Of a DNA stretch of 64,000 bases, positions 7,561-40,457 are shown piece by piece. The notes below the pieces were generated by a model that was given only the letters and a program-made list of their open reading frames with translations, was not told the origin of the DNA and ran no database searches. The DNA comes from Blasia pusilla (Eukaryota). How positions within the stretch are numbered: the first letter of the stretch is position 1; the number at the start of each line of letters is the position of its first letter. Location: contig CM114271.1 of NCBI GenBank assembly GCA_050084515.1, positions 14,198,001 to 14,262,000 of the forward strand, read 5' to 3'. The position numbers and the translations under genes are program-made.

Positions 7561-7909
7561 GACGGCTGGATGAGTCAGTTACCCGTGCAGTTTGCGGGAC
7601 GAGGTGGTCGATCACGAGGCGAGTCTGTGACCACGTTGGCAGCTTTCATAGGTAGTGTTAGCTGGCCAAGAGAGTTGTTGGAGGGGAACGCACATGCGGA
7701 GGATGTCCCAGTAGCGGATAGTCCCATGGAGAGAGAGGCCATGGCGGGTGACTCTTCCCATGTTGGCGAGGCCTCTTCACCATTGTGGGGTACGGCTCAA
7801 GAGCTACAGAGGAGTGCCGACGACCTCGTGAGGCACGCGTGGAGTCATGTTTTTATCCCACAGCCGCGAGTCACGTGGCAATCGGGCTCTTGGAGTGGAG
7901 ACGATGACC

Positions 7910-8900: not shown

Positions 8901-9201
8901 TATGGTTGAGCAGAGACGGATGCGAGTGTCATCCATGCCGTCACGTCCACGAGTTGGACCATTGCCTATAGGGTCTGTACAGGCATTGGCAGGGGGCGAG
9001 ACGAGGAGAGATAGACACCCATGGACTTCTTGGGACGTCGTTCGAGCAGAGAGTGCGAAGGCGGCTAGAGTAGCACATGTTCATTTTTCGGATGTGGAGC
9101 ATGGTGTAGGAGGTTAGAGTGGAGTGGCTGTTGCGGAGGTGGCTAGGGTTGCTACATAGCAACCAAAGCCGGAGGTTGCGTCCTCTCCGAGTGAGGTCAC
9201 G

Positions 9202-10640
9202 ATGGAGACTTGGGAGCCTGTGATAGGTCTCAAGTTGATAGGAGGAGAGCGACGGCGAGTTCAAAGGTTTCTGAGAGGGCATGTCAGTTGTTTTGCCTTC
9301 AGTATGAGAGACTTGGGTACGCTGAAGGGTCCCGGGATACGGATTGAGTTGGCTAGTGATACGCCGATCTTTCGTCGACCCTGCAGGTATTCTGATATGG
9401 AGCGAGCCTTGATTGAGCAGAGTCGGAGGACTTGTTGGAGGCAGGACTTGTGGAGTTATCACAAGGGGAGTATGCATGTGCCACAGTCATGCCGGCGAAG
9501 AAGGATATGTATGGCAATTGGACGGATAGGCGGATGTGTGGAGATTACCGTCCTATCAACCGACAAACGAGGCCAGATCGGTACACCATGCCTACTCTTG
9601 AGGAGATCTTTGATGCGGTAGGGCATGCAAAGATCTTCAGTACTTTAGATCTCCGTGTTGGCTATCATCAGCTTCCTATCAGGTTGGAGGACAAGGAGAA
9701 GACAGCATTCTGGGGGATAGATCGGTTCGGGAGAGATTGCTTGTATCAGTGGCGGTTGTTACCATTTGGGTTGAAGAACGCGCCTGCAGAGTTTCAAAGA
9801 GTGATGGATAGGATTCTGGCTGGCTTGGATTTTGTACGATGTTACATAGATGATATTCTTATCTTCAATTCCACGGTTGAGGAGCATGAGTGACACTTGG
9901 AGGAGGTGTTTCGGCGATTGCGATTACATGGGTGAAGTTACATCCGGAAAGTGCAGATTCTTTCAGGAGCAGATTGAGTACTTGGGACACACCATATACC
10001 CGAGTGGGTTAGGCGTTCAGCAGACAAAGGTAGAGGCTATTGCGTAGATTCCATGCCCTACACATGTGAGTCGAGTCCGAGCATTTCTTGGAGTGGCGAA
10101 CTTCTATCGACGGTATGTCAAGGGTTTTAGTGCGATCGCAAAGTCTTTGACCTTGTTGACGAGACTTGATCAGGTTTGGTTGTGGGGAGATGATCAGGAG
10201 CGAGCATTTCAAGAGCTCAAGGACAGGTTGACGTCCTCACCCATTTTACAGAGACTGGTTAGGGGTTGCCCATTCCAATTACATACGGATTGGAGTATGT
10301 TGGGTCTAGGAGCAGTGCTTACTCAGAGGGATGACAAGGAGAGGGAGTTTGTTGTGGCTTACGCGAGCCAATCAAACAACATTGCAGAGGCGATGTACAG
10401 CTCCTATAAGGGAGAGTGCTTGGCTGCAGTGTGGGCCGTGGCACATTTCAAGTGCTATTTATTCGACAACCCTTTCACAGTTATCATTGATCATCAGCCG
10501 TTGAGGTGGTTGATGGAGTCCGACAAGCTTACAGGCAAGCTTGCCAGGTGGGCTCTATTACTACAGGAGTATGAGTTTGAGGTGGTTCATAGGCCAGGTC
10601 GGCTGAACCAGATAGCGGATGGGTTGAGTCGTAACCCATG
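9202..10640 (+). pseudogene. E1 reverse transcriptase and RNase H
   Basis: RMCGDYRPIN, IFSTLDLRVGYHQL, LPFGLKNAPAEFQRVMD, CYIDDILIF (gypsy-type RT); FQLHTDWSMLGLGAVL, ECLAAVWAV, IIDHQPL, ADGLSR (RNase H). Confidence 0.95.
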
Positions 10641-11029
10641 TCCGAGTCAGAGAGACGACATAGGAGCTCGATGGCACGGAGAGAGTGATGAGGAGATGGT
10701 GCCCAGTTGGCATGCATCTGCCTATCTTTGTGGGTTGACTATGGCAGGTCAGCCACAAGTGATGACTCCAGTGGTGGGATTGGATGATGAGTCTTTGGAT
10801 CCGGAGGTTAGTGAGGAGGCGATAGGTGGTCGTGATATCCATGACGACGTGGAGGTTGTGGAGTTCTTGCGCACTGGCGTCATTGGGAGTACAGTGAGTG
10901 CTAGGGAGCGGGATCGGATCCTACTGAGAGCCAAGAGGTTCAGGTGGGAGGGGACTCACATTTTGCGGGTATGGGGAGATGGTAGAATACGAGTGGTACC
11001 TCATCCTTCCTAGTGAGCACGTGTAGTGC

Positions 11030-12278
11030 GACATGCCCATGAGGAGTTGGGACATTTCGGAGTAAAGCGTACTTACAGCTTACTCTAGGTTCAATATTGG
11101 TGGCGCGGCATGCATCTTTGGGTACAAAGCGGTTTGTGGCGGATGTATGGTATGTGACAGAGTGCGAGCATCCTTCAATGCTTCCACTCCCTTGATTACA
11201 TCCTTTGCCGATTATGGGTTTAGGTTATCGGTGGAGTTTAGACTTTGCGGGACCTTTGCCATTGATAGGGCGTCATCATAGGTACGTGTTGGTCATGGTG
11301 GAGCATTTCTCCAAGTGGATAGAGTTGGTGGCACTACCAGATAAGGCGAGCGAGGGAACAGCTTATGCATTTCTAGATCGTGTGCTTAGTCACTTCGGTG
11401 CACCGGTAGAGGTGTTGACTGACCAGGGTACCGAGTTCATGGGAGAGTTTTAGGCCTTGTGTGATCATGCGCTGATAGATCACCGCACCACGTCCAAAGA
11501 TCATCCTGAAGCGTATGGGTTGGCGGAGAGAGTGGTACAGACGGTGAAGAGAGGATTGCGCAAGTATGGCTTGCAGCGGGGACAGTTGAGGGATTGGGAC
11601 CTACAGTTGCCATGGTTGGCTATGGGTCATCGCTTTAGTCGGCAGGCATCCTTGGCGTCATTTTCACCATAATTTTTGCTCTTTGGGAGAGAGCCAGATT
11701 TACCTGCAGCAATTTGACGTGACATGGCGAAGGTGTTAGATCTTGATGATCCAGATGTGTGGGTACAAGCATGTTCTCAGAGGGCAGAAGTTTTTCGTAG
11801 AGTTATGCCTATGGCCTTTGAGAACTTAGCTATTGCCCAGCATAGAGATACATTGAGGTACGCGACCATTCGTGGAGGAGGTTATCGTCCAGGGATTAGG
11901 AGGTTTCATCCTAGAGATTACGTGTATTTACCGCAGGCGGCACCCACGACGCTAGATGTCACTGCAGGGCGCACGATCCTACGTGTGCGCGAGGTATTAC
12001 CGACCGGAGTCCTCATGTTGGAGGGACGGGATGGTATGGTTTGGAAGGATCATGTGCGTAATTGTGCGCCATGTCATATTCCGAACGTAGATGGGACGGT
12101 GGATCCGAGCTTGGCACTGGTACCTGCAGGCTTGAGGTGTATGTTGTGCGGATCTACGAGGGGTGCAGCCACCATGTTGGTATGTGATGGTTGTTCTCGA
12201 GGGTGGTATATGTCATATCTGACCCCCCCTCTTGATGTGGTTCCCACGGGACGATGGATGTGTCCGAGATGTGTATAG
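11030..12278 (+). pseudogene. E1 DDE integrase with C-terminal PHD finger
   Basis: HEELGHFG...CxxC zinc-binding domain; LDFAGPL / LTDQGTEF / GLAER catalytic D-D-E; terminal CMLC...[11 protein letters not shown](H)MS(C)LTPPLDVVPTGRWMCPRC matches the C4HC3 PHD pattern (~12138-12275). Confidence 0.92.
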
Positions 12279-12355
12279 GGTAGTAGGTCATGTCAGAGAG
12301 ATGTGATATTTTCTATCTGGAGTTGGGGGGATCCAACTGCCAACTAAGGGGGCGG

Positions 12356-12494
12356 TTGTGTGATCTCCATGTATATGTATGAGTTGATTTTTTTGTACAT
12401 GTGAGGATCGACCTGTGTGTGGGGAAGATCGGTGTTGTGTGGTGTAGATGTGATGAGCGATGTATGTTGTGTAGCGATATGTATGCGCACGACA
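12356..12494 (+). repeat. 3' terminal repeat B of E1
   Basis: Follows the conserved CTAAGGGGGC tract and ends TGTGTAGCGATATGTATGCGCACGACA, like B repeats in the other copies. Confidence 0.75.
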
Positions 12495-15400
12495 GCCCTC
12501 AAATCTTTCATATTGATCTCTATATCAATACAAGCCTAATCTTAACTCAAGAGGCCCTAGGCTCAATACACTAGCATAGTCTTGCTATAATATATCAAGG
12601 ATTCCATTCTTGAAGTCTTACATGTAAAGTTGAGCTCCAAATGAACCTCTTAAAGGATGTATCCTTATTTCAATTGTATGGTAACCTATGTGCTCAAGTC
12701 AACATTCCAACCAGGAGATCATTATCAACCTATGATACATGTTGATAGTGTTATAGACACTCCTCAACTATCTCTATATCTAATCATCTCATATTAAACA
12801 ACAAGCAAAGACCCCTCATAAGAGATCAATCCCTCTTATGCCAGCCTAGTTGAGGCTAGTTGGCTCAAGTACAACAACTACACGCATGACACTCAGTAAC
12901 GAGTCACCAAAAGGATGTACTCATAGGTCATATCTGAGGTCCTAGAGGTCACAATCACCTCCCCAAATGAGCATTACAAAGGACCCCTCTAAGCCCCAAC
13001 GTAATTTTTCCTGCTCTCTACAATTATGATATGTTGGAATAGAGAGTGATTAGAAAAGTTGTGTTTAGAAAAGTTGAGGATATATATTAGTAGGTCAAGG
13101 ATGACCTATTGGGCAGATGGAAGACATGCGTATGTAGGATATTAGGATTTAGTTAGAGGAATTTCCTTTCTTTGAGCATGGTTGAATATACTTGGCAAAA
13201 TCTACCACTATTGCAACATAATTGTAGACGAACATAGATACTTTTTGTCAACAAGTTGATTGTTACTCTCATATGAACTAATGGACTTGCAAAATGAAAT
13301 CCTAAGGTCTCCTACACCCACACTAAGTGCCTTATATTCATATATTGTATTACTCTCGAAGAGTGCGTAAATTATTATGAGACAGAATGTTCAAAACTTC
13401 AAAATAAGGTTTGATTGTATGGTAGTTGTTGGAAAAGAAAAGGGGTGTCAAGAAAAAAATTAAAGGAAGGGATTAATTGAAGACAAGGTTGAAGTCAGGA
13501 GGGAAGGTGAGATTTGATTTGTTTGTTCTAAATAAAGAGTTGTCTATGAGAATTAGGGGATGTTTTTTCCTACAAAGAGAAAAACCAAGAGAGTAAATCT
13601 TTTGCAAGTGAGGAAGAGGAAATTTTTTTTCCTAAATACGGAGGTAATATTAAAGCTTATTTGAATGAAGGAAGAGAATTTTCAAAAATAAATAGGGAAA
13701 AGGGGATTTTTATTTATGAAGATGATATGAGAATGAAGATTTTTTGAATGTAGAAGGGGAAAGGAAGTTTTGGGAGTTTTTAATGAATTTAGAGAGGTAG
13801 AGGGAAACACATTTCTAAGTTTTTTTATTATCATACAAAAGCACCATCATACTTCCAGAAGTGTACGTAAAGCAAACTAATAAATTTATGCCCATCCAAA
13901 TGGGCAATCTTAAGCCTTTTAGGACCCATGATTTCAATCCCCCCCTCGCCCCCCTCCGGATAGTAGGTCGATAACCACCTCCCCGAATAGTCGCATACCT
14001 CGACGTATCCCGATGCTGCGCAATCGCCAAGTTCTCAAACGCCATGGGCATCACTCTCCGAAACAATTCAGCCCTCTGAGAACATGCTCACATCCATACA
14101 TCAGGGTCATCAAGGTTCAACACCTCACCAACATCTCGACAAATGGCTGCAAGTAAATTTGGCTCTCGGACATATAGCAGCAAGTACGGTGAGAAAGACG
14201 CTAAGGATGCTTGCTTGCTGAATTTGTATCCCATCGCCAACCACGGCAACTGCAGGTCCCAATCTCCTAGGTGACCTTTGTGCAAGCCATACTTGCGTAA
14301 TCCTCTCTTCACCATTTGCACAACCCTCTCCGCTAGTCCATCCGCCTCAGGATGATCTCGCGAAGTGGTGCGGTGGTCGATGAGCGCCTAATGACACAAG
14401 GCTTGAAACTCCCCGCAAAACTCTATACCCTGGTGTGTCAACACCTCATCTGATGTGCCGTGATGACTTAGAACTGATCTAGGAAGGCATACGCTACTCC
14501 CTCACTCGCTTTATTAGGCAATGCAACCAACTCTATCCACTTCGAGATGTGCTTGACCATCATCAACACATAATGACTATGGCGCTTCATCAAAGACAAA
14601 GGTCCTGAGAAAATCCAAACTCCACCTATAACCTAAATCCATGATCGAAAGTGGATGCAATTGTGGAGTTGGAGCATTGAACGAGGCTCGGACCCGATCA
14701 CAAACCATGCATATGGCAACAAACTGTGGAACGTCAGTCTGCATGCCTCACCACCAATACTGTATCTAGAGCAAGTTGTACGTCCGCTTCACTCCAAAAT
14801 GACCCAACTCCTTGTGGGCATGACGCACCAAACGTACTCTCTACAAAGGATAAGACACTACACGCACTCTACATCCTCCCAAACTCGCAACACATGTGTC
14901 TCCTCCCACCGGAACCGTCTGGCTCGCTATAGGATCCGATTATGCTCTCTAGCACCCACTGTGCTCGTGACGCTGCCAATACAGAGGAACCCCAAGACTA
15001 CTCCATCGTGGTGAATGTCTCAGCCACCTGTCATCTCCTCACCGGCCTCAAAATCTAAGGACTCTCCATCAGACCTTGCCATCAAAGTCTCAGCAATCTG
15101 GCTTTCCATAGCTAACAAGCCCAAATAGGCTGACGCGTGCCATCTTGGCACCAACTCCTCATCACTCTCACCATGCCAACAAGCTCCAGTTGTATCTCGC
15201 TGACTTGGGCATGGATTACGGCTCAAACCATCTGTATCCTGCTTGAGCATCCCACGTCTATGCACCACTTAGAAGTCATACTCCTACAACAAAAGAGCCC
15301 ACCTCGCAAGCTTCCCTATAAGCTTGTCGGACTCCATCAACCACTAAAGTGGTTGATGATCAGTAATGAGGGTAAAGGGGTTGCCAAATAAATAACACCT

Positions 15401-18400
15401 GAAATGTGCGACAGCCCACACCGCAGTCAAGCACTCATCCTCATACGAGCTATACTTTGCCTCTACAACATTGTTCGAGTGACTAGCGTAAGCCACCACA
15501 AACTCTCTACCATCATCGTCATGCTAGGTGAGCATGGCTCCAAGCCCTAACATGCGCCAATCGGTATGCAAGTGGACAACACGCCCCCTGATCGGTCTCC
15601 TCAATATGGGCACGGACGTCAATCTGTTCTTGAGCAGCTGAAATACTCTCTCCTGCTCATCCCCCTAGTGCCACTCTTGATCCACCTTGGTCATCAAGGT
15701 TAGCGGCTTCGTAATCAAATTGAAACCCTTGACGTACCGTCGATAGAAGTTTGCTAATCCCATGAATGCACGAACTCGACTCACATCTGTAGGGCGTGGA
15801 ATGCGTGAAATAGCCTCTACCTTTGTCTGCTGCACACCAAGGCCCCCTCGGTATATTGTATGACCCAAGTACTTAATCAAGTCGTAGAAAAACTTGCACT
15901 TGCCTGAATGTAGCTTCAGCCCATGTAATTGCAATCTTCGAAACACCTCCTCTAGATGTTGCTCATGCTCCTCAATCATGGGGCTAAAGACTACAATGTC
16001 ATCAATATAACACCTAGAAAAATCCAGACGTGCCAAGATCCTATCCATGACCCTGTGAAACTCAACCGAGCCGTTCTTTAACCTGAATGGTAGGAACCGC
16101 CATTGGTACAAACAATCCTTCTCGTTAGGATCGATGCCCCAAAATGCTATCTTGTGCCTGTCCTCCAATTTGATAGGCAGTTGATGGTATCCGGCTCGCA
16201 AATCTAATGAAATGAAGACCTTTGCATGCCCAATCGCATTAAAGATCTCCTCAGGTATGGGCATGGCATAGCTATTGGACTTCATCTGCCAATTGATAGG
16301 TTGGTAATCTCCACACATCCGCCTATCGGTCTAGTTGCCATGCACATCCTTCTTGGCGGGCATGATAGTGGCACATGCATACTTTCCATGCGACATCTCC
16401 ACTAGTCCTGCTCCAACCAAGTCTTGGCTCCTACTCTGAGTCAGAGCCCTCTCCATGTCACTATACCTATAGGATCGTCGGAAGATTGGCGTGTCACTCG
16501 ACAACTCAATGTGGATCCCTCGATCCTTCAGCGTACCCAAATCATGCATGCTAAATGCAAAACAACTCCTATAACTCCTCAGGAATTGATGTATCCAGCA
16601 CCGCTCTCCTTCTGTCAACTTAAGGCCCATATCTCGCTTCCAAGTCTCCATCGTGATTATGGTAGGACTCTCCGGCGCGGGTGTAGGTGGTGTCGTGCGA
16701 ATCCACATCGTCATACAACATATATCGCTGACGTACCATACTCACATACATACATAAAATAGACAAGAGCATACACAAACACAAGTGTACCACAACTGAA
16801 ATCCGTGAAAGACCTATTGTCATAAAATACGTAAAGAATCACATACAATCGAGCCAAGCCCACTCCACGACGGGAGAATCCAGGCCGAAGCTTACGGGAA
16901 CCACAATAGCCAAGAGCTCTACTCACTACCAAGGCTAACTCCCAACGCAACCGGCTCAACTCAAAGAACTAACTATTCTTTGAGTACACTCCACACTTTA
17001 CCCTCCAACCTAAGGGCAAGCCCCATTGGAATAGTCACCCTCAACGGAGTAACCCGCAACCCTATGTATGAAACCGCATCCCTACCTAGGCACTACGGCC
17101 CTACATAAGGTATGGCCTCTACTAGCACACTATAATCTACGACATAATCCATATGGTCATGACAGCTATCGTGCGAATCCATATCTTGATACAACATACA
17201 TCGTTGACATACCATACTCACATACATAACATAACATAGACGAGAGCATACACTTGCACAAGTGTACCACAACTTGCCCCCCTAACTAGCGGTTAGGTCC
17301 CTCTAACTCCTAGGTAGCCCTATACATCTACTACATGCTATACACCTTTGTGGGTGCACGAATTAGAAGGCCGGATGCTAGGTTGCCCCATCGTAAGTCG
17401 CACATCTGTAATCCATATCATGCAAAAATCAAGTCATCTACCCCTTCTAAGTACATCGAGGAAAAACCCACCTTCCAGTAGGAACAACATCCATACTTGG
17501 AGTCAAACACATCATGTGCCAACCCCTAGAACACCGATCACACACCAACATACGGGCTGCATTACCACCAGACCCACACAACATGCACCTCAAGCTAGCA
17601 CATATCATGGCTAAGCTTGGGTCAACAGTACCATCCAAATTTGGAAGATGATATGGCGTAAAATTACTCACATGGTCCTTCCAAACAACTCCATCACGAC
17701 TCTCCAACATGAGAACTCCAGAAGCTAACACCTCTTGCACTCATAAAATAGTGCGGCCTGCCGTCACATCCAACGTTGTCGGTGAAATCTGCTGCAAATA
17801 GACATAGTCCCCCACATGGAACCTACAAATTGATAGTCTATCACCTCCACCCAAAATGGTTTCATACCGCAATGTATCCCTGTGTTGAGCAATAGCAAGA
17901 TTCTCAAAGGTTTTTGGCATAACTCTCCGAAAGAGCTCTGCCCGCTGAGAACACACTTTCATCCACATCTCTAGGTCATCAAGGTTCACCACCTCACTAG
18001 ACTCTCGACAAATCGCTACTGGCAAGTCTGGATCTTGGTCGTATAACAGAAAATAAGATGAGAAGGAAGCCAAGGATGCTTGGCGATTGAACCTATACCC
18101 CATGGCTAACCATGGCAACTAAATATCCTAGTCTCTAAGATGCCCCTTCTGTAGGCCATACTTGCGCAATGCCCTCTTCACCGTCTGAACAACACGCTCA
18201 GCCAAACCATCCGCCTTTGGATGATCTCGAGACGTGGTCCGATGATCAATCAACGCCTTGTCACACAAGACCTGAAACTCACCCTGAAACTCTGTACCCT
18301 GGTCGGTCAGCACCTCAGCTGGTGCACCAAAATGACTAAGCACTCTATCAAGAAACCCATACGCCTTGTCAGGTAATGCCATCAACTCAATCCACTTGGA

Positions 18401-20789
18401 GAAGTGCTCCACCATCACCAACACATATCAATGATGTCGTATAGTCAACGATAACGGTCCTGCAAAGTCCACGCTTCAATGGTAACCCAACCCCATAATA
18501 GGCAAGGGGTGTAACTGTGGTATAAGGGCATTGAATGATGCCCTCACCCGGTCACAAATCATACAACGTGACACCAACTGCTGCACTTGAGTATGCATGC
18601 CACGCCACCAATACTGGCCAAGGAGTAAGCTATACCTACGCTTTACCCCAAAATGTCCCAACTCCTCATGGGCATGTCGCACAATGCGCTCTCTCTGAGC
18701 CAAATACGGCACCACTCGTACTCTACCATCCTCCCACACACAGAGAATATGTGTTCTCTCCAATCGATACCTCCTAGCACGTTGGAACACGGTCTCGCTC
18801 CTTGGAAATCACTATATCTGGCATCCTACTGGTCCGTAGGAACTCCAACACCAACGCGTCATCATGAATATCAGGCTGATCCGTACCACCATCTCCAACC
18901 TCAGGATCTGAAGGTTGGCCATCTACCCTCTAAGTAGAGTAAGATGTCATGTGGTCCTCCATAGTAGAGTCCACCCCTAACCAACATAAAAAGGCAAATG
19001 CATGCCAACCTGGCACCATCTCCTCATCAACCTCGCCATGCCATTTAGCCCCAGTTGCATCCTATTGGCGAGTACATGGATTTCTACTCAACCCATCAGC
19101 ATCAAGGTTGGAAACTCCAGGTCTATGTACCACCTGGAAGTCATTCTCCTATAAGATAAGAGCCCACCGTGCAAGCTTCCCTGTAAGCTTGTCAGACTCC
19201 ATCAACCACTTGAACGACTGGTGATCAGTTACAAGGGTAAATTGTGTGCCAAACAAGTAACACCTAAAGTGTGCCACAACCCACACTACTGCCAAGCACT
19301 CTCTCTCATATGAACTATAGCACGACTCCGCTGCATTATTCAAACGACTTGCATAGGCCACCACAAACTCCATGTGCTCATCATCATGTTGTGTCAACAT
19401 CGCTCCAAGTCCCAACATACTCCAATCAGTGTGCAACTAAAATGGGCGCCCTTTGATAGGTCTCCTCAAGATAGGCACGGCCACCAACAGGGCCTTGACC
19501 TCCACAAAAGCTCTCTCCTGATCATCTCCCTATTGCCACTCCTGATGTGATTTCACCAATTGGTTTAAAGGCTTTGCCATAGCACAAAATCCCTTCACAT
19601 ACCTCCGATAGTAGTTCGCCAATCCCATGAATGCCCGAACTCTACTCACATCTACCAGACAAGGAATAAGTGCAATAGCTTCCACCTTTTCTTGCTGAAC
19701 TCCCAAACCACCTGGATAGATCACATGACCCAAGTACTCAACATCCTCATGGAAGAACTTACATTTTTATGGATGCAAACGTAGACCATGAGCTTTCAAC
19801 CACTCAAACACAATCTGCAAATTTATCTGATGCTCCTCCACCGTGTTACTAAACACCAAGATATCATCAATGTAGCACTGAACAAAATCCAACCCTGCTA
19901 GGATCCTGTCCATCACTCTTTGAAACTCGGCAGGTGCATTCTTCAACCCAAAGGGTAAGAATTTCCATTGATACAAACAATCCTTGCCATGAGAGTTGAC
20001 ATCCCAAAATGTTGTCTTGGCCTTGTCACTCTCTCGAATGGGCAACTAATGGTATCTTGCCCGAAGATCCAAAGTACTGAAAATCTTTGCATGTCCCACC
20101 ATATCAAAGATCTCCTCAGCTGTAGGCATGGCATACCTATCGGCCTTGGTCTGCCGATTAAAAGGACGGTAATCTCCGCACATCCACCTATCCGTGTAGT
20201 TGCCATGCACATCCTTTTTAGCGGGCATGACAGTGGCTGATGCATACTCCCCATGCGAAAACTCCACTAATCCAGCCTCCAAAAGGTCCAACGTCCTACT
20301 CTGAATTAGGTCCCTCTCCATATCACTATATCGGTAGGTACGACGGAAGATTGGCGTATCACTAGCCAAATCAATCCGTATACCAGGTCCAACCAAAGCA
20401 CCCAACTCCTTCATGCTTAAGGCAAAACAACTCTTATAAGCATGTAGGAATTGTGTCAAGCGTCGTTTCTCACCTCCCGTAAGCTTGGGCCCAAGAAATG
20501 GCTCCCAAGTCTTCTCCAGTGGCACACTAGAGGGAGAGGACAATGCCATTGGTTGCTACGCAACCCCCTCAGAAGATGGTAAACCCTTAGCTACACCATC
20601 ATCTAATCAAATAACTCCTCCACTAGCATGAGCAACCAACTCCACATGCCCAGCCATTACATCCCATTTACTCCAAGGATGCAAAATACTACTCTCCTCG
20701 CCCCCAACCGATGCCTCTACCTTCTCGGTAGCCATCGAGCTCATCACAAGGGGTGGAAGACCCACAGACATAGTCGGAAGTCGACGCTG

Positions 20790-21790
20790 CTCGGCCATAC
20801 CAAGACTCAAAATCCAGGTCAAAAAATTCAGGTCCATGGCTTGACCCAACACATGACGTCATGAAGCCTCAGAAATGGAAGCAACCGCTGTCACACTAGT
20901 AGCAAATCCCATCACACGCTCTCTCTCATCATTGTTAGGCTCCACCAACTGTCGCACATGAGAGTCCCATACAAGCCCGGGACCACCTTCCTTGTATGCA
21001 TGTGACGAGGGAAAACTCACAAATGTGGATAGTGCCATCCTAGGCTGCCCCACACGGTACACCACTACCATGGGTGATCGATCAATAACCCTCACCACCT
21101 GAGAAAGTCGCCCAGTATCCAAGATTCTATCCACTGTAAGGCAAGGATCCCGCTGCATTGCACTCATATGTATGGTGTAGAACCTCCCTAGGCAACAAGT
21201 TTGTCCACCACAAGCGTGGACGATGTGCAAGCGAGCCAACTCGCGCTCTATCCAACAACACCGCTAGTCCAATCCAAGACTGCACCTCATGAACACTCAC
21301 CATCATCTGGGTCCGAGTGTCACCCAACAATGGAACATTCTCTAGAATGTAAGTTGGACCACGTGCTTGATGAACCCGAAGATGTCGTAACACACACAAC
21401 ATCTCCCAAAAAAATCGAGACCTAGGGTCGTGTAATCCCTCACCACGACCAGCACGTGTATGACCCTAACATGGCAATCCAGCAATCACCAAATCCACAA
21501 GACCAACCCTCTCAAGGTCCTGCGCCCCCAACAATGCAATGTGTGACGGCAAAGCACGCTAGTACCCACAAATAGCTGATGGCGGCAACAACTCAGGATA
21601 TCTCCGCATCAACTGACCAATATGTCGAGATGAGACTCTCTGGGCCATCTCATCTTGCTCCACATACACGTATCTCCGCATAGGAATATCGGCCTACAAC
21701 ATTGCAGCCAAACCACTGTTAATCCCACCAAAGAGATCTAACACACAAATGCCCTGCGGCGCATACCGCCATGCAATGGGTGTAGTATCC
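20790..21790 (-). pseudogene. E3 C5-cytosine methyltransferase domain
   Basis: ICVLDLFGGINSGLAA, VDLVIAGLPC*GH, YILENVPLLGD, AHRPRLWWTNL, ERERVMGF, LGQAMDL. Confidence 0.9.
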
Positions 21791-21877
21791 AAAAGGGATA
21801 ACCCAACTGGACCAGAAGTAGGAGTCCGCCGTGGAGCCTCCTCTTCCTCGTGAGGTATAACAGCCTCACACCAAGCC

Positions 21878-21942
21878 TCCTACATTAGGCGATCAGCCTC
21901 CTACACTAGGCGATCAACCTCCTACACTAGGCGATCAGCCTC
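21878..21942. repeat. Three tandem copies of a 21-bp unit in the E3 PR-MTase linker
   Basis: CCTCCTACA(T/C)TAGGCGATCA(G/A) x3. Confidence 0.85.
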
Positions 21943-24900
21943 TGCCATAGTGCACTGCCTGAACTCCAAAGTGGCACATCCAACGATGAGGATAACAGTG
22001 CTGCAAAACTAGGGACCTCCTCTACCTCCTCATGCACAAGAGAATCCATAGCATAAAGGTTACCCTCCAAAAAGTCTCCAGGCCAAGTGACTACTCCCCT
22101 AAAACCAGCCACAGATGCTAATACCGTTGGGGAAGACCCTCTTGGTCAAGCCCCATAAATAAATCTAACAAGAACCTGGCTCATACGTCCATCCCCGGAC
22201 TGCCAACCAGGTCTATAAGACGCTGTCTCGGTCCAATAGTCCATCTAAAAACCCATGGGGTATAATATTGCTCCTCCAACTAGTACATCATACGACTCAG
22301 CTGATGTGACCACTGTAGGTACTCCCAACTTGGAGCTATCAATCGCATGATCTGGTCTCTACTATAGAGACAACTTCTCTCATGTCATGAAATGAGACCT
22401 ATCACTGGCTCCTCCAAGTGATGTCTGAATTTGGAATGGGCAAGGCTCAAGCTCTGACCTCCGAATACCCAGGCCAATACATGCCACCTTTCCCAACATC
22501 AAAGGTTGGGCACCAGAGTCTAACAAGACTCTATATGGTCTATACACGTGTCCTGTAGGACTCACCAATCGGAATATCCCACTCCGGTTGTCCAACATAC
22601 ATACACCAAGTGTAAGCCTCTCACAATCAATGGCTGGCCGGGCTGATAATGCATCCATCTTCACCGGTGTTGCCTGCCAAGTAGCATTGGTACTCAATGC
22701 TACACCTGACATAGAGGGTTACTCCACCGCAACACTCTCATCCACCTCAGCACGTGTAGCAATAACACTCCCATGTTCACACAACATGGCCGCTAGTTGA
22801 AATACAGGAGCTAAGTCAACCCCTAAGGCCATCAACTGAGTGGCTAAAAACAATGGGGATCCCAACACTGAAGTTGCCATCCGCAATACTGCACTAGATG
22901 TTGCATCCGTATCTACTATACGCGATGTAGATGCCTCAATCCCCACTTTAGGCTCAATAGGTTGCGTAGGAACCATGGATGGAGTCCTAAGCACCTCAGA
23001 CCACAAGAATGACCGGGGGAGCCTAGCCTACCTCCCAGCCTCACCCCTCTGTGGATCCAACTCCACAGTAGCACCACGTGGCTCTGACGCTCGAGTGGCT
23101 CCTCTTGTAACTGCAGCTGATGCCTCAACCTATGCTCCACTCACCATATAAGAGAGATCATCCCCTCCATAAGAGATGGAAGCCCCTACTCCTGAACCTG
23201 CTCCATGCTAGATACCAGCCATAGTAGCCAACCTTTGCTCCAACTGCTCAATCCTGGTAGCCATAGCTGACTCTGTCATAATGGTAGGGGCAGCCACCGT
23301 AGGCTCTCTAGCCGCTGGTCCACCTCTACCACCCCTACCACCTCTACCACCTCGGCCTCTTGGAGCTACTCCACCAGGGCCGCGGCCTGTCTGAACACTG
23401 GATGAAGATCAAAGCAACGCTCTCGAGGATGACCTGGTTTCCCACAATGATCACACTGAGTTGGGGCTGACTAAGGTCCATCCTCCAAAGTCCGTCCCCC
23501 ATCCTCTTGGGGACAAAACCTCCTAACATGATCACCTCCACATGTCCAACATGATTTTCCTTGATACGGGGCAGCAAATAAAGGCAATGGTCTCTATGCA
23601 AGTGTCCCTCTAGGACCTAACTGAGGTCGTGTGTACCCCCCACGACTCCCACTACTACTACCACCACCACTACTACGAGACTGTGAGATGGACTGTTGAA
23701 CACGAGAAGTAGTAGTTGTATCCCTACTGAATGCGGATGTCACCACCCTCTCCTCCACCATGTTAAGCTCAATCTTCTCAAATAGAGCAAACACATGGGC
23801 CAATGTGGGTGAATCATCACTCATAAGAGTAGCATCACGTACCCTATGGCGCAACTCTTTGTCCAAGATCCCATACCAAAACTAGACTGCGTAAGCCTCA
23901 GTCACACCTTGGGGAACTGAAATCAAGCATCGCATACGAGTGTATGCCTCACAAAGACTCTCACCAATATTTCGCTCAAATTCTTGAAGACTCCTCAACT
24001 TTTCTGTCTTCACCCCCTGATAGTTCTTCTTCAACCTCTTGAAGAACTCTGCAACTGGGCTGAACGATGGTGGGGCACTAGTACCTCCACTAGTACCCCC
24101 ACTGGTACCTCCACTGGTACCTCCACTCCGGCTCGTACTTGCACCACTCAACGTCGGGCTAGCTGACACAATAAGAGCACTACTACCAATACCACCATGG
24201 GTGATAGACACATAGCCTGGAGACCAATGTTGTCTCCACGCCTCAATCTCAGCAGTATGGTCCCTCCTAAATTCATGGTAATCATCCATGGGTGGTCCCT
24301 CCAAGTGCTGAAACAACCCCTTCCAAGCCAAGAAGGGTGTAAACAACGTGGCGTTCCGCAACATCTACATATCACATCACGTATCAAACTCTTGAATCCT
24401 CCAACTCAATGGTGCCGACTGCACCCGAGTATCTTCGTGGGCCCTTCATGACCCCATACATCTCGTCCATGTCCCAAATCAATGGAGCTGCAACACTCGA
24501 TAACAACGTAGAAGACTCGGTGTTTGGAACACCCTTGTCCTCTTCTTCATCAACCGTCGGAAGTGGAAAAGGTAGCCGATACCTCAATCCACTCCATGTA
24601 AAACCACCATTGTTCGCACCACGGTCCCCAACCAGACCACCAAACAGCTCTGTGATGACCAACGCCGATGCCGCACCACCACCAAATCACCACCACTGAG
24701 TAACCAAGTGACGTCGATGTCAATGTACTATTCTAGCCCTGATAGCTATGGGTGTGGGCAACCTTACTTGTCATCACCACAAGAAGCCTCCCACGCTCTA
24801 GAAGTCATCACTCCACTCTCACCGTGAGAGAAACAAATGTAGTTTGACTGGTCATCACTCCAGCCTCACTACCAATAGCACACAGGAGTAAAACTACTCT

Positions 24901-26152
24901 GGAAATCAGCGTCAGCCCTAACAATGGGCGCGCAAGCAAGAAGCAACGATGGAGGGGATCCAAACACAGGAAGTCCAATGACAACCCTCCAATCGCAACT
25001 GGAAATACAAAATGGAAATCAAGGTAACAAAATCCACCAAACATGGCGCCCCCTGAATCCACAGAACCAACCACACAATTCTAACGCAATAGCTACTCTG
25101 TCGGTGGTCGATGACGTGCTAGTCGCACTCGCAGCACCTGAAAATGTCATCCGCATGGAGAGGCCACACCGTACTATGCGCTAGAGGTCCATCAACCGAA
25201 AACTCGAGATGCATAAAAGCGCCTAACGCATCTCCAAATAACACCAAATGAGCTACACCAGTGTGTACACTGGCATAGTTAAGTACTCAGCAGTTAAGCG
25301 TCTTCCAGACAGAATAGCCCAAAGATGGGTGACCAGTTATGCACCACTTAACTCACAAATCCTGTAAAAACTGCCTCACGCCCAAGCAAGCTTGCTTGCT
25401 TGCTCCTTGCTCCTTACTGCGCCTCTCATGCCCACTCGCCCCAAGCTACCACGAGTCGCCTCGATGCCTCGAAGCCTCGAAGCCTCGAAACCTTGAAACG
25501 CCAAGAAATGCTCAAGACATGCCCCGTTCGCCACACTTCGTTATGGAGAGAGGCCCAACCAAGGCGCCCCCAATGGGATAGGCGTCTCCAACAACGGATG
25601 AGTCACCAACCAGCCCCTCCGATCTGTTGTCCACCATAGCTAGACCTTGAGCTAGTCCGCAAAATTTTGACCAGCAATTACTCCACAAATCCTCGACCAA
25701 AATTGAATCTGTTTCGACTAGAATTCAATTGGCCACCATAGCTATCTCTCCACAAAAAATCAGCTACAACCGAGCTCTATACTTCGAGTTAAAAATCAGA
25801 CAAATTTGTTGTCCATACACCTCCAGAATTGCAAATCCGACAGCGCTTCCGCCCCAATTCATGCACACAGAAATTTGCAACACTCTTTCACCACAGCAAC
25901 AATCCGCTCCACACACTCAACCAGAATCTTCAATCTTTGATAACTTCCAACTCCTCGACGAAATCCGGCGATCTAAAGTGCGTTGGAAAGCTCTCAGCAA
26001 GGCGCTTCTTTCTCAACCAACCACGCATCAGATCCACACCCCCAACATAGGCCACAAGCCACGAACATCCACGGCTGAGTACACAATCAGTCCTAACCAG
26101 ATCCTACTGATCCACGATCGAAGCTACCATTGATCTACTCTAGTTGTTTGAG

Positions 26153-26520
26153 TGAAATCCGTGAAAGACCTACTGTCATAAAACACATAAAGAATCACAT
26201 ACAATCGAGCCAAACCCACTCCACGACGGGAGAATCCAGACCGAAGCTTGCGGTAACCACCATAGCCAAGAGCTCTACTCACTACCAAGGCTAACTCCCA
26301 ACGCAACAAGCTCAACTCAAAGAACTAACTGTTCTTTGAGTACACTCCACACTATACCCTCCAACCTAAGGGCGGGCCCCACTGGAAAAGTCACCCTCAA
26401 CGGAGTAACCCCCAACCCTATGTATGAAACCGCATCCCTACCTAGGCACTATGGCCCTACATAAGGTATGGCCTCTACTAGCACACTATACTCTACAACA
26501 TAATCCGGATGGTCATGATA
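26153..26520 (-). repeat. 5' terminal repeat A1 (gamma type) of E3
   Basis: Same length as, and highly similar to, 16797-17164. Its start TATCATGACC is read as a G>A variant of the TGTCATGACC seen in A2. Confidence 0.9.
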
Positions 26521-26853
26521 GTGGTTGCTATGGTGTAACCCCGTCTCGGACATCAAAACTCGACTGCTCCCTTACTGCCAACTGCAAAATCGAATCTCCA
26601 TGTGCAGTGCCCGGAACCACACTCGATGTTGTGGCTACCATCTCTTGGCATACCTGCAAAAAATCCCAAAAAGTCCAAGGATGTCTCTCCCGATCACTCA
26701 TGGTGTGTCGATCTCCTTGGGTCTCGCCCTTAGGCACTGCCTCAACCGTGTTGGTAGGCATTGGGCTCACCAATGCAACCGCTGTGATCTGTTGCATCCT
26801 CAAATGACACTACTCAGCTACTCCTAAGTTGAAAATCCACGTCAAGGAGTTCA

Positions 26854-27882
26854 TATCGCGACCCTCATAACCAAACAACACCAAATAGGCACCAAGCGGA
26901 ACATCTGAACTCAAGTGGACTCACGCTGCGATGTTTGCGCTTTGGAGAGGCGTTTGGAAAGGTCTCTTGGAAAAGTCCAAGAGAAGAAACACGGAATAGA
27001 GTTGCGCATTTTGTGTGTTAGTGGTCGTGACCAGGAAACCTAGACCAAACGCGAGCCAAGACTTGAGATGAGTTGAGTCTTGGAAGGTTGGCTGCCAAGG
27101 AGGTGAGAACCAGTTTTTGAACACGACTAGCGTTTGGGGAATTTGACTATGTTTTGGACCATAACGTTTAGCCCCAAGATGTGTTCGAGACAAGTAAGGC
27201 GCGTTGGAATGCTTATCTTGAGATACTTCCAACGCACCAAAGATCTCAGCGAACGCATAAGTACAGACTAAGATATTGGCCGAAAACGACTGTGAGAGCA
27301 ATCTGGTTTAGGGCCAATTGGAGAGGCCCAGGTGTCTTTCCCTAAAGTTAGGGGAGGCCCGGAGATCCCTAAAAGTACTAGTAAGGGAGCAGTCTCTCCA
27401 AGATGTCTTGGAACACAAATCCCTACTTTGAGCGCCAAACGGCGTCTCAGAGGCACGGGATGGAACGGGAGTTTGGCGTTGGAACTCAAAACCCAAACCT
27501 GATCCAAGGGAGTGGACTTTGTATGCCACACTTGGATTCCAACCCGAGATTCACTTTGTGCGAGTCTCGGTTAGGGACTCATTGGATGTCCATCGGACAA
27601 TTGGAACCGCCAGGCACGAAACGCCGTTTGAGGTTCTTGAACCGACCAGAAAGTCTGTCCCAAGTCCTCCAAGACTTGCCGGTGTTGTAAACCGCAAAAC
27701 TAGGAAGGTTGAGCTTGATGAGATACCGAGACGATAACTTGGAAAGTTAGCCCACTGATTGATCCAAGACCCGACTAACCAGAGTGCGTGTTTGGATTTG
27801 GATCAGCATTGAGAGCGTGACCTATTGAACGCACACTTTCGCAACAACAAGATTAACGTTCAAGGAGAGTAGGCGCACGATA
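26854..27882. mobile_element. Solo-LTR-like insert of an unrelated family (1029 bp) with 5-bp TSD GTTCA
   Basis: Interrupts the E2 MDLN..LTWI coding stretch. Flanked by GTTCA (26849-26853 and 27883-27887); ends TATCG...CGATA; no convincing ORF. Confidence 0.75.
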
Positions 27883-27884
27883 GT

Positions 27885-28870
27885 TCAGGTCCATCGCTTG
27901 ACCCAAGACATGACGTCGTGATCCCTTTGATAGTGACGGTACTGCCGTCACTCGTGTGGGGAATCCTATCGCTTGCTCTTGCTCATCGGCGTTGGGCTTC
28001 ACCAACCTCTGTACATGGTCATCCCAAACCAAGCCACGTCCGGCATTGTTGAATGCATAGGAAGCGGGAAAACTCAAAAATATGGGAAAGGCTGCCTGTG
28101 GCATGCCAATCTTGTTGACCATAATCAACAGCGGTCGATCATCGTATGTCATTGTTGTGATCGACGGCCCGGATCCAATATGGAATCCACCAACAAGTGG
28201 AAGGGGCGCTCCACTCGTGCATATGCCCTCCGCAACACCTCGTGTGGCACTAAGTTGATCCACCAAAGACATGGGCGGTGTGCTCTAGAACCTACACTCG
28301 CCGCATCCAAAAACACTGTCGGGCCAATCCATGCGCACACTTGATGCGCACTCGTTACCATACGGGACCTTGAATCGCCCAAAATCGACACATTCTCCAG
28401 AATGTATGTTGGAGAACGGGACAAATGCTATTGTAAGTGTCACAAGATCCGCATCATCTCCCAAAATAACCTGGACCGAGAGTCAGCTAATCCGCTACCC
28501 CGTCCAGCACTTGACTGGCCTTGACACGGCTAACCAGCACTTGATTGGCCTTGACACGGCTAACCAGCAATGACCAAATCTATGGTCCCTACCCGCTCCA
28601 AGTCTTACGCCCCAAGCAATGAAATATCCCTCGATAGGGAACTCTTGTATCCTGGACAGCACACGTAGACATCAAGTCGAGAAAAAGGAGGCGTAACTGT
28701 GTCACATGGTGAAGTGAAGTGCGCCTCGCAACATCATCAATCTCCACATACATGTACTGTTGCACGCGTACTCATGCTTGCAAAATAGCAGCTAACCCAG
28801 TGTTTATCCCTCTTAAGAGATCCAACACCCGAATACCCTCCTCTGGGATACGCCACACAATGGGTGTGGT
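27885..28870 (-). pseudogene. E2 C5-cytosine methyltransferase domain
   Basis: IRVLDLLRGINTGLAA, DLVIAG*PCQGQSSAG (30-bp tandem duplication 28504-28563), YILENVSILGD, AHRPCLWWINL, EQEQAIGF, RRHVLGQAMDL. Confidence 0.88.
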
Positions 28871-31446
28871 ATCATAGCACTATCGGCTACCTCGGGTTTC
28901 TCTTACCCGTCATGCTCTGGTGCAAACGTCTCGCTCCACACGGTCTGCACATGCTCAGTGGCTAAGTGTCGAGCCCCAAAGCGGCACCTCTCCTCCACGG
29001 ACTGATGCGGCGACCATAACACTCCTCTCCATAGAGATTTCACGAACAGGAGTATCCTCTGCATGGACATGTCCCTCAATCAAATCACTAGGCCAAGAGA
29101 TGGCACTGCTAAATGCTGCTAAGGTCGCCATCTCTCCTGGCCGGCGCTCGATCACTGCACCTGTAAATCGAACGGGTAATGAGCTAAGGTGCCCATCATC
29201 TGATTGCTATCCTGGTCTGTAGGACGCTGACTCCTGCCAGTAATCGAGGGAAAACCCCATCGGATACAACACTGCTCCACCAACCAAGACGTTGTAGGAC
29301 TCTACATCAGTCACTATCGCCTTAGCTCGCACCACGGACTCATTGTAGGATGTCCCGTGCGAATCCTCACCACGACCTCTTGTCAAGTGATATATTGTGT
29401 GGTACTCGCTCCACCCAAGGATGTGTGTATCCGGAATGGACAACGCTCCACATCGGCTCTCGTCAAGCCCAATCCTCTGAATATCGCTTTCCCCAACATC
29501 AGGGGTTGCGCTGCTGAATCCAACAAGACGCGTTGCAGACTAAAAGCTCTACCTCCTCGACTCACCAAGAGGAAGACCTCTCCCCAATTATCCAGCAAAA
29601 AACAATAGGAGTCGCCATGGCACGCTCTATCGCGGGTCTAGCGGGCATCTCCGCCATCCTAGCAGTCGCAGCCTGCCATGAATCTGATGTGGACGGCCGG
29701 AGCATCAACTCCAAGGTCAGGTCCATCACCTCCTCTACAATCCCCTCTAAACGTGATGTAGGAACTCCAACTCCATGCTCACATAGCGTAGCGGCCAGCC
29801 AAAAAACCTTGGCGGGTATTCCTCCCAACATCATAACATCAGAAGCATAAAATAAAGGACCACGGTACACAACAGTGACCGCCCCCAACAACGTGCTTGA
29901 CAGATGCTCCTCCTGAGCATCAACAATAGGAGTCCTCGCACTCACTTCTCCCATCGCCCTTTGTGCCTGCATACCAACAACATCGCCAACTCTCCGGGAA
30001 CTCTGACAAGACCCATCGATGGATCCTCGTCGCCTCGGACAACGTGAAGGACTGAGGAAGCCTGGTCTGTTTCCTTGCTTCCCCTCGCTGTGGATCCAAC
30101 TCTACGGCTGCTCCATGGGTAACAACTGCGACAGCCTCCATCTGGGCAACCTCGCACATCCAACTAGGATCCTCCATATCTCTGGCAGCTCCATAAGACG
30201 TCGATGCCACGGATCCGGCATCATATAACCTCAATGACATGGCGGCAATCTGCTATTGTAGCTGCTGAATCCGAGCGGCCATCCCAGCCCCACGCCGGGC
30301 GTCTCCCTCGACATGTCTAAGTGGTGGAACTCTACCTCCTCCACGGACAACTCCACCACCCCCTCGGGCGAATTCAACTCCTCGTCCCCCAACGTGACCA
30401 CCTGGTGCACGACCTCTAGGCCCACCCGGACCGGCAACTCGCTCTGGTGCTCTCTCTGGCCCTTGGTCGGGAGGTAACTCATGGTGCAAGCTGAAACACC
30501 TGGCGCGTGTGTGACCGTACCTCTGACAGTAGTCACACTAAAAAATTCCTGGTGTAGCACCATCTCCTCCTCCATGCTAAGGCACATGACCATGGTCCTG
30601 ACGAGTGCAATCACGCTGATGATAGGCTCCACCACATGCCCAACAAGTAATCATAGGCGGTTGTTGCTAAGCCACATATGAAGGTGCAAGTCTCTTTGGC
30701 ATGGTCTCCCAATATCCTCCCTGAGCTCATGGTGCCAAAGACCTATCTTAGAATCCACATTGCTGCATTGGTGGTGCAAGCAATCGTGATTGCTCTCGTC
30801 GAGCAATCACGATTGTTCTCGCGGGTATAGGCCTCACGCAAACTCTCACTCGGGCGCCTCTAGAAGTCATGGATGCTCTGCAACTTCTCCGTCCGCATCC
30901 CCTGGTAGCTCGTCCTCAACTCAACGAAGAACTCAACCACGGGGTTGAACCTAGGACGAACTCGACTCGACGATGCAATTGCTCCAATGCGAGTCACCCC
31001 TCCTACAACATCACTGGTGGAGCAACCCTCTCTTGACTCCTCCTCCTCATCTTAAAACGGATCAGTCCATGACACATAGTGTGGATCATAGTAGAGTCTC
31101 CATGCCTCAATCTTGTGGGCATATCTCTGCAAGAACTCATGGTTATCGTCCATGGGTGCCCCCTCTAAATACTGGAACATTTCATGCCATGTTGTAAACG
31201 GGTTGAACTCTCTAGAGTTCGTAGCCTGTTGTGAGTCACACCAACTCCTAAACTCTGCAATGAATTCGTGTAACTTTATAGTGCCTCAAGCACCCGAAAA
31301 CCTCTAGGTCCTCTACCCCGGTCGTCCATCTCGTACGCCCAACTCGTAGAACCACTCAGTGTGTGCGGTGGATCACTAAGCCAGTTTGCACGTCTCCGGG
31401 ACAGTCAGCTAAGACGTGGTAGTAGAGAAGTTGTCCCTCGCCAAAT

Positions 31447-31447
31447 T

Positions 31448-31490
<43 letters not shown>

Positions 31491-31493
31491 TTA
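31447..31493 (+). repeat. (TTTA)n microsatellite
   Basis: About 11 tandem TTTA units. Confidence 0.95.
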
Positions 31494-32287
31494 ACTAGAA
31501 TAACTCCCTAGGAAAATTGGATCTCCACTATCTTTCCTTACTTGATAGCCCCCCTCCTGACAGATCAGCAAATTGAATGCCTTACCACAAATCCCTCCTT
31601 AGATTGAGGGTCAACACCCCCAAAAATGGGATCTACTCACCCTACCTCCAAATAGTTGAATTCACTTATCTTATCCACCAAGTAAACTGATTTTTTTTTC
31701 TACCTCTCAAGAAAGAATTTCTACCCAAAAATTTTGGAATTTCACTCACATCTTGGAACGGTGGCTATGGCAGCCCAACAAAAATGATCATAACTTCGTG
31801 CTCCAATCTCCAATTTGTGCAGCGTTTCTTCAGCAGCATACTCCACTTCCCGACCTACAACCTCGTCAAATCAATTTCTCCATTTGATTTTCCATCAAAA
31901 CCTGACGGGGACTGTTGTGCAACCCAACGTCTCTTTCTCCTACACAAAATTTGGCAGCGCTTCTGTGCTGATTTCTTCCAATGAAAATGTGAAACCTATG
32001 AAAATAAAAATCAGCAAGCTACAGGGTGCTCTCGAGAACACCGGCATGGGGAAATCCACCCCCATGCTTAATCCCTATCAAAAATTGGGCAGCGCTTCCG
32101 CACGCCACTCTTCCACACGAAAAATCGGCAAAGGAAACATCAAAAGTAAGCGACTCTTGCTCCGGTGAGCAATCCCATGAACCGCTGAACGGGGAATACC
32201 ATCCCCAACCTCAAAAAACCAAGGAGTGACCACCGAGCTCCCCCATGAAGCTCTCTCACTCACTCATTCTCTCTTTGTAAATCAAGT

Positions 32288-32797
32288 AGATCCAATCTCT
32301 CTCCACATCATAGCTCTCAAATGTGTGCACTCTCACATGTCTCCCTCAATGTCAAACCAAACCCATTCTCCTAATGAGAGGCTTGGGTTACACTCACAAG
32401 GCAAGCAAGACCATAGCTCCGCCGCCTCATGCCAAGAAGTTCAACAAAGAGAGAATGAGCTCTCAAGCTCTCTCTCTTGGAGGTATACCCCCTCCCCTCT
32501 CCCAAGCTCTCTCCTCGGTAACCTATGCTCGCACGTCATCTCCTTGGCTCTTGACCTAATGTAGCGGGTCAAGGTCCACTTCCCAAAGTGGAAAGTCAAC
32601 TCTACCAAACATGGAAACTTTCCCAAAATAGTAAGTTTCTCTATTTGGCTTCAAATGAGCCGAAACGAAGTGAAAAACCTGCTCTCTCAAGTTTCCCAGG
32701 ACCTCAGCAGGTCATCCTCAACGTCCTCAGCCTATCCTCCTCTACTTGCAAAGGCGCTCTACGAGATCTTTCCGATCTATCCTAAAAATTTATGACA
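32288..32797 (-). repeat. 5' terminal repeat A1 (beta type) of E2
   Basis: Homologous to 47907-48427, 51142-51656 and 57408-57630; minus-strand start TGTCATAAA. Confidence 0.85.
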
Positions 32798-40270: not shown

Positions 40271-40414
40271 TTTAATTGAAGTTCATTTTTCTTACTTTCA
40301 TAAGACAATGAAACTATTGTCCTCCTTACTTTATAAGTAACCCATACCTCTCATTAGGAGAGTGGGTTTGGTTTAGGGTTGGAGCTTCCAAATGTCAACC
40401 AAGAAACTCTTCAC

Positions 40415-40417
<3 letters not shown>

Positions 40418-40457
<40 letters not shown>

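Follow-up and report, generated by a model that had tools for sequence, protein, structure and literature searches.

Layout of E3 and related elements

The window analysed here, a 64,000-nucleotide stretch of Blasia pusilla DNA (contig CM114271.1, positions 14,198,001 to 14,262,000, forward strand), is a nest of retroelements in which E3 lies inside E2 and E6 lies inside E5/E7. All of the copies in the window are decayed and carry numerous stops and frameshifts. We focused on E3 (16691-26520, minus strand), which has split direct repeats, A and B, arranged in the order A1-coding-B1-A2-B2 with a 4-bp target-site duplication (TSD) at its outer ends and a matching empty site. Repeat search and self-BLAST aligned the A copies at 26153-26520 and 16797-17162/4 with 94% identity across 366 nt and the B copies at 16693-16797 and 17169-17274 with 88.7% identity across 106 nt. 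This confirmed the layout and coordinates proposed in an earlier annotation made from the letters of the window (the initial annotation), and the outer ends that it had placed by the 4-bp TSD (CCAC on the minus strand) and the empty site at about 58302-58305 held up as well.

The boundaries of the parts of E3 were taken directly from the sequence and are given here in the order of the minus strand. The upstream TSD, CCAC, lies at 26521-26524 and corresponds to the empty site at 58302-58305. It is followed by A1 (26153-26520), delimited by repeat comparison, whose first bases are TATCATG as compared to TGTCATG in A2. A1 contains a TATA-like box (26356-26353) and a primer-like stretch (26327-26316), and a putative self-priming primer-binding site (PBS) at 26141-26152 adjoins A1 and pairs by eye with this stretch at 11/12 positions. 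The coding region includes a remnant of a C5 DNA methylase (PF00145) at 21175-21810, interrupted by stops and detected by Pfam with stops read as X, and a degenerate pol at 17450-20516 that encodes reverse transcriptase (RT), RNase H, integrase (H2C2 and rve) and a C-terminal PHD finger. A conserved non-coding 28-nt motif common to related loci lies at 17369-17396, in the interval between the pol stop and the polypurine tract (PPT). The PPT itself, AGGGGGGCAA (17274-17283), adjoins B1 (17167-17273) and is found at the same place in E1, E5, E6 and related loci. A 2-nt spacer, GC (17165-17166), separates the end of B1 (..GATA; elsewhere ..GACA) from the start of A2 (TGTC) and forms the centre of a palindrome. 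A2 (16797-17164) is followed by B2 (16691-16796), and the A2/B2 join consists of the last base before the PBS and the first base after the PPT. The element ends in ..CACGACA and the downstream TSD, CCAC, lies at 16687-16690, so that on the minus strand CCAC flanks both sides. At the paralogous empty site (58305-58302) there is a single CCAC with flanks identical to those of E3. Short contigs from public DNA runs also connect 16674-16682 straight to 26520-26522; they probably represent paralogous copies that lack the insert. The 28-nt motif had a single occurrence in the window (17369-17396, 3 mismatches) and none in 100 shuffles, and it was also found just after pol in L004, L007, L020, L044 and L001-L003, indicating that it is kept across families.

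The layout was compared across 80 metagenome loci retrieved by a contig scan with an alignment of 14 PHD-type pol proteins. Locus layouts were determined by self-BLAST and by mapping the A and B units of two families (M1 and M2), and contigs from the same locus were merged. Among 34 distinct 3' ends, 21 had the arrangement B1-NN-A2, where NN is the 2-nt spacer; B2 was also present in 18 of these and the other 3 were cut by the contig end or disrupted. In the remaining 13 of the 34, B was directly followed by unrelated DNA. None of the 19 distinct 5' ends had a B beside A, before or after it, and all carried A alone. The same was true of the five complete 5' ends in the window (E1, E2, E3, E8 and E9). 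No repeats were detected in L001, L002, L011 and L062, whose contigs are short or end inside the element.

Exact 4-bp duplications surrounded 13 of the 15 complete copies in the related loci. Long forms with both ends had exact 4-mers in 8 of 10 cases (L004, L019, L025, L026, L036, L044, L053 and L064), and the two inexact duplications matched at 3/4 bases in L022 and 2/4 in L051. Short forms (A-coding-B) with both ends had exact 4-mers in 5 of 5 cases (L005, L007/L008, L009, L017 and L063). The duplication of E3 matches at 4/4 bases. The initial annotation had named two arrangements that would speak against a split-repeat element, a complete A+B LTR (long terminal repeat) at the 5' end of most copies and an A2-B2 unit with a TSD of its own. 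Neither was found: a 5' A+B was seen at 0/19 distinct 5' ends of the related loci and at 0/5 complete 5' ends in the window, and the A2-B2 unit lacks a separate TSD, with B1 plus 2 nt to its left. The B1-A2-B2 3' end that it had reported in E5, E6 and an old copy was likewise recovered, in each case with a 2-nt spacer. These data support the split-repeat layout as a heritable trait of a Ty3/gypsy-type lineage with a DDE integrase and not an accident of one copy.

Repeat copies were also compared by a nearest-neighbour test. The closest sequence was the copy's own partner for 9/24 B copies and 7/10 A copies, which is too noisy for dating, and the B1 and B2 of different copies did not fall into separate lineages. 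At one locus (L052, 3317-3592) an internal deletion has taken out the PPT, B1 and half of A2, leaving the end of pol fused straight to the remaining 3' half of A, after which B follows.

The other copies in the window belong to families designated beta and gamma. E6 (beta; 51014-57630, minus strand) is inserted into E5/E7. It has a truncated 5' A1 (57630-57403), a PBS (57402-57387) and a primer-like stretch (57578-57563), and at its 3' end a PPT (51795-51787), B1 (51786-51659), the spacer AT, A2 (51656-51142) and B2 (51141-51014). The 3' part of E5 (beta; 47779-51013, minus strand) comprises B1 (48557-48430), the spacer AT, A2 (48427-47907) and B2 (47906-47779), and its 5' continuation is 57629-58328 (E7). 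E2 (beta; minus strand), the host of E3, has its 5' part at 26525-32797 and its pol resumes at 16687-13941; it has a full A1 (32797-32279), a PBS (32278-32263) and a primer-like stretch (32459-32444). The initial annotation had placed the beta A unit at the 5' ends of both E2 and E6, which is borne out in full for E2, while in E6 only the last ~228-231 nt of A are present (57630-57403). An old beta-like 3' end on the plus strand (39232-41055) has B1 at 39232-39360, the spacer CT, an A2 from 39363 that is disrupted by insertions and tandem repeats, and a partial B2 from 41014. The tandem repeats in this A2 are ~70-110 nt long with (GA)n runs (40400-40960, plus strand).

E1 (gamma; 3802-12494, plus strand) is a short form, A-coding-PPT-B, with A at 3802-4276, PBS at 4277-4286, PPT at 12346-12354 and B at 12355-12494. 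It stops after the single B, followed by unrelated AT-rich DNA, and its flanking 4-mers are CCCC and GCCC. The 5' part of E8 (gamma; 59529-64000, plus strand) extends past the window end, with A from 59529, a PBS at 59992-60005 and a primer-like stretch at 59817-59830. An additional gamma-family 5' end, E9, with A, PBS and more, was seen at 56164-56845 (minus strand) in the 5' region of the beta element E6, which means that part of this region of E6 is foreign. Both datable insertions in the window hit the pol of related elements, E3 in the N-terminus of E2 pol and E6 in the pol of E5/E7, which could reflect targeting by the PHD finger or the mere density of such DNA. The window shows a strong strand bias: GC skew was -0.2 to -0.29 over minus-strand elements and +0.15 to +0.38 over plus-strand ones; its sign tracks the element strand, indicating that the coding strand is G-rich and C-poor. 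A 238-aa open frame with WD40 repeats at 44505-45221 (minus strand; Pfam WD40, E 4e-20) is probably part of a host gene between element nests.

Coding content and placement

Pfam identified RVT_1, RT_RNaseH, Integrase_H2C2, rve and a C-terminal PHD finger in the window copies. The order of pol is RT, RNase H and integrase (H2C2 zinc finger plus DDE core), which is the Ty3/gypsy order, and tblastn with a near-intact relative, P0006, recovered the same order in E1, E2, E3, E5/E7 and E6. The top solved relative of full-length P0006 was Ty3 Gag-Pol (7q5b, E 1e-91). No chromodomain was found in the window copies, which have the PHD finger instead, and none of the 43 translated stretches scanned matched the tyrosine recombinase profile (PF00589). 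A C5 DNA methylase (PF00145) lies upstream of RT in L019 and L044, and remnants of it were found in E1, E3 and E6 by Pfam on frames with X at stops. The nearest named proteins are from liverworts (Calypogeia, Riccia and Marchantia) and then from Klebsormidium and Closterium, several of them with PF00145 or PF00628. L019 contains a near-intact polyprotein frame (6938-12952, 2005 codons with only 5 stops) spanning a protease-like region, the DNA methylase, RT, RNase H, integrase and PHD. Two frames upstream of it (6369-7468) had no Pfam match and are presumably gag.

The termini (TGTCA.. and ..GACA, that is TG..CA) and the 4-bp TSDs are those of Ty3/gypsy elements, and a PBS and PPT lie beside the repeats, with the putative self-type PBS adjoining A1 and the PPT adjoining B1 and not A2. 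Two identical LTRs around the internal region, the remaining hallmark of the group, were not found, as the 5' end has A alone and the 3' end consists of B-NN-A-B. E3 and its neighbours belong to a streptophyte lineage of Ty3/gypsy-type retrotransposons, and by their predicted proteins this lineage encodes an aspartic-protease-like region, a C5 DNA methylase, RT, RNase H, a DDE integrase and a C-terminal PHD finger. The initial annotation had suggested a distinct class of retroelement with its own replication route. The heritable split layout stands, but the domain order and the closest solved relative are those of Ty3/gypsy and reverse transcription looks canonical. The element is therefore a real and under-described variant within a lineage of methylase- and PHD-bearing Ty3/gypsy-type elements and not a new class.

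In the literature examined, as far as its text was available, a single publication (de Mendoza et al. 2018) remarked on the layout itself, in KnitGypsy-Dnmt3 of Klebsormidium nitens, which its Fig. 4c legend describes as having a DIRS-like repeat arrangement with Gypsy domains (PMC5890265). Like the elements described here it has a Gypsy-type pol with a Dnmt3-like C5 methylase, and Klebsormidium proteins with PF00145 are among the relatives of the window pol; the host in the present case, in contrast, is bryophyte-like. The main-text section on KnitGypsy-Dnmt3 gives no TSD, PBS, PPT, junction or mechanism (PMC5890265), and the name KnitGypsy occurred in one paper only in the literature searched. 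Searches combining PHD finger, integrase and gypsy returned nothing on this family, and in the available text of the literature examined split direct repeats together with an integrase appeared only in tyrosine-recombinase contexts. The anatomy that explains the layout appears to be undescribed in the literature searched. Troyka, which the initial annotation had named as a group for comparison, is also a non-canonical gypsy-like group, but is otherwise unrelated to the split layout: the available text describes animal hosts, 3-bp TSDs, CG..CG termini and normal LTR pairs (PMC12440569). Dictyostelium DGLT-A was considered as a parallel with odd LTRs and was ruled out, as it is described as having normal LTRs with PBS and PPT in the part of the paper that covers it (PMC5006619). 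In the REXdb survey Phygy and Selgy are short elements, and the term PHD has no occurrence in its main text.

Primer site, polypurine tract and repeat junctions

The initial annotation had seen no clear PBS after A1. We found that a primer site is present, apparently of the self-priming kind and not the tRNA kind. The bases adjoining A1 are complementary to a stretch within A over 16 nt in beta (E2 and E6), 14-15 nt in gamma (E8 and E9), 13-15 nt in M1 and 10-17 nt in M2. The control was a set of 300 random 40-nt windows for each element. In 15/23 5' ends the bases next to A1 were exactly complementary to part of the A interior over 10 nt or more, and 13/23 beat all 300 control windows. The paired primer sequences change between families while their complementarity is kept, and the internal primer-like partner lies 26-32 nt downstream of the TATA box. 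The complement and its spacing from the TATA box form a putative Tf1/sushi-type self-priming signature. Self-priming is stated for Tf1/Sushi and predicted for plant Tcn1 (PMC6317226). These elements share with ours the lack of a tRNA-type PBS and post-repeat bases that pair with the predicted transcript 5' end; they differ in having two complete LTRs and a chromodomain, whereas our elements have split repeats and carry a PHD finger at the integrase C-terminus.

At the other end of the coding region a G-rich tract ends exactly at the start of B1 in E1, E3, E5, E6 and the M1/M2 loci. B ends in ..GACA and A starts with TGTCA with 2 nt between them, and the full GACA-GC-TGTC is a 10-bp palindrome (CA-NN-TG). 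The spacer was purine-pyrimidine in 19/20 loci read. Departures from GACA-GC-TGTC are nearly all transitions, those in the flanking CA and TG included, and transitions also made up 470/635 differing sites between E3 and its relatives in DNA run X1. In L025 and L030, which represent one locus (>96% identity over 15.8 kb), the spacer is GT and AT respectively, a single transition. The idea that the 2 nt of the spacer are made anew in each cycle was rejected, as 19/20 are purine-pyrimidine and the changes are nearly all transitions.

The A2|B2 join consists of the last base before the PBS and the first base after the PPT. It is exact in M1 (L012, L019, L025, L026 and L047) and in beta. For E3 and for M2 (L020 and L027, and with a transition L044 and L034) exactness requires that the start of B be placed 3 nt past the G-run. 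Small errors were seen in other loci, with a 17-nt filler in L004 and losses of 1-2 nt in L015/L066, L028, L036 and L068, and B2 of L053 is without its first ~145 nt. Such scattered small errors are the pattern expected of a junction made anew. Joints in run contigs between equivalent positions of A1 and A2 or of B1 and B2 were set aside as uninformative, since they reflect the choice of alignment among near-identical copies. Contigs of two further runs, only guessed to be of RNA, covered internal stretches of the element and one of them ran across A2|B2; they were not taken as a sign of expression.

A candidate replication route and its alternatives

Integrated copies read TSD-A1-PBS-coding-PPT-B1-NN-A2-B2-TSD, with A bordering on the PBS and B on the PPT, a placement from which canonical strand transfer predicts the repeat B+NN+A. 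An RNA running from A1 to A2 would by canonical reverse transcription yield a linear complementary DNA (cDNA) of the form (B-NN-A)-PBS-coding-PPT-(B-NN-A), in which the LTR is B+NN+A. The cDNA ends would then be joined, either ligated to form a circle or linked by a template jump from one end to the other, to give the A2|B2 junction, and the integrase would cut the palindrome inside the upstream LTR and not the cDNA tips. Joining of the tips followed by opening at the upstream-LTR palindrome would leave the extra B2 after A2, and the internal cut would make the provirus a circular permutation of an ordinary two-LTR provirus. The short form, A-coding-B, could arise by cutting of both palindromes, from a one-LTR circle, or by later recombination between B1 and B2, and its exact TSDs fit all three routes alike. 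Only the long form keeps the R region at both transcript ends and it would thus be the only form able to replicate. The failure of B1 and B2 to form separate lineages is expected if B2 is regenerated in each cycle. From the anatomy we consider this permuted-provirus mechanism (a B+NN+A LTR, joined ends and an internal integrase cut) the best explanation of the layout and a reasonably probable one. Reverse transcription looks canonical, and the integrase cut site looks to be what differs.

Retroviral integrases offer a parallel, as those of prototype foamy virus (PFV) and human immunodeficiency virus type 1 (HIV-1) can, according to the available text of the reports, cut palindromic LTR-LTR junctions (PMC1180852, PMC1905944). 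There the two att ends of a 2-LTR circle form a CA-NN..-TG palindrome that integrase can cut internally; the retroviral junction is a by-product of circularisation, whereas here the palindrome is within the LTR and would be the regular cut site. In a wider and more tentative form, which is possible, integration would routinely proceed from joined-end (circular) cDNA, with the DDE integrase acting as a site-specific endonuclease on an LTR-internal palindromic att site and the provirus being a circular permutation of the reverse-transcription product. This style of replication would stand between LTR retrotransposons, DIRS elements and pararetroviruses and would be conserved from Klebsormidium-like algae to bryophytes.

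Several observations weigh against the permuted-provirus mechanism. Its steps beyond the anatomy were inferred from canonical rules, and neither RNA or cDNA ends nor circles were observed. A circle opened randomly at either palindrome should also give A-B-A-coding-B, a form that was absent from the 19 distinct 5' ends of the related loci and from the 5 in the window, so that an extra assumption is needed; possibly the palindrome near the left cDNA end is cut preferentially, a template jump on one side takes the place of the circle, or the form is quickly lost by recombination between its closely spaced A copies. Eight of the 23 5' ends, E3 among them, had no exact complement above the controls, in copies that are decayed. 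The variability of the spacer also counts on this side, although it is probably transition decay of GC. In 8 loci the A pairs have diverged more than the B pairs, whereas in E3 and E6 they have diverged less, and all copies seen are old (A1/A2 86-96% identity).

The absence of A-B-A-coding-B is where two other routes do better. In one, no circle forms: on reaching the end of A, the nascent plus strand would switch to the start of B and copy B a second time, and the integrase would then trim a linear molecule back to its two outermost palindromes. The product would be extended only on its right side, which fits the absence of that form, and the junctions of L028 and L036 share 2 nt between the A end and the B start, as in microhomology-guided jumps. 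Sequence alone cannot tell such a jump from ligation, and the route gives no reason why the minus strand would skip the mirror jump; we judge it unlikely. In the other, replication would follow the PAT/Ngaro style of the DIRS order with a borrowed integrase, a sub-length transcript and B1-A2 as a bridging template by which the missing ends are restored. The DDE integrase would then insert the full A..B-A-B cDNA by that molecule's own tips. This accounts for the missing form with no extra assumption, and the order A1-coding-B1-A2-B2 is that of split-direct-repeat tyrosine-recombinase elements in the available text of PMC8969392, just as the repeats of KnitGypsy-Dnmt3 are called DIRS-like in that of PMC5890265. 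PAT/Ngaro elements, however, have a tyrosine recombinase and lack TSDs, whereas the elements described here have a DDE integrase, 4-bp TSDs, TG..CA ends, a PPT and a PBS, and PF00589 was matched by 0/43 translated stretches. The repeat edges at the PPT and PBS are what canonical strand transfer predicts and would be unneeded under bridging, and the A2|B2 join differs among related copies, making a DIRS-style route quite improbable.

A rearranged ordinary LTR element, formed by a solo LTR (A-B) landing beside a 3' end, by unequal recombination or by an assembly artefact, would not be surprising here, as decayed elements are densely nested in the window and are often rearranged. Three diverged families of the window nevertheless share this order, as do two further families on independent metagenome contigs, with exact outer TSDs; A2-B2 carries no TSD of its own, and no copy has a full A+B at its 5' end; we regard such an origin as extremely improbable.

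The family is very abundant in the DNA runs of the source organism, with a summed contig depth in the tens of thousands. Tools that search for LTR pairs would probably mishandle it, as B1 and B2 could be called as a tiny false element or A1 and A2 could give a wrong 3' end with no TSD and no adjacent PPT, and bryophyte repeat annotations may as a result undercount the family. With a DNA methylase and a PHD reader aboard, these elements are relevant to the interplay between transposons and chromatin. If the permuted-provirus mechanism is true, they would represent a natural uncoupling of the ends chosen by the integrase from the ends made by the reverse transcriptase, which would bear on the evolution of att sites, circles and LTRs.

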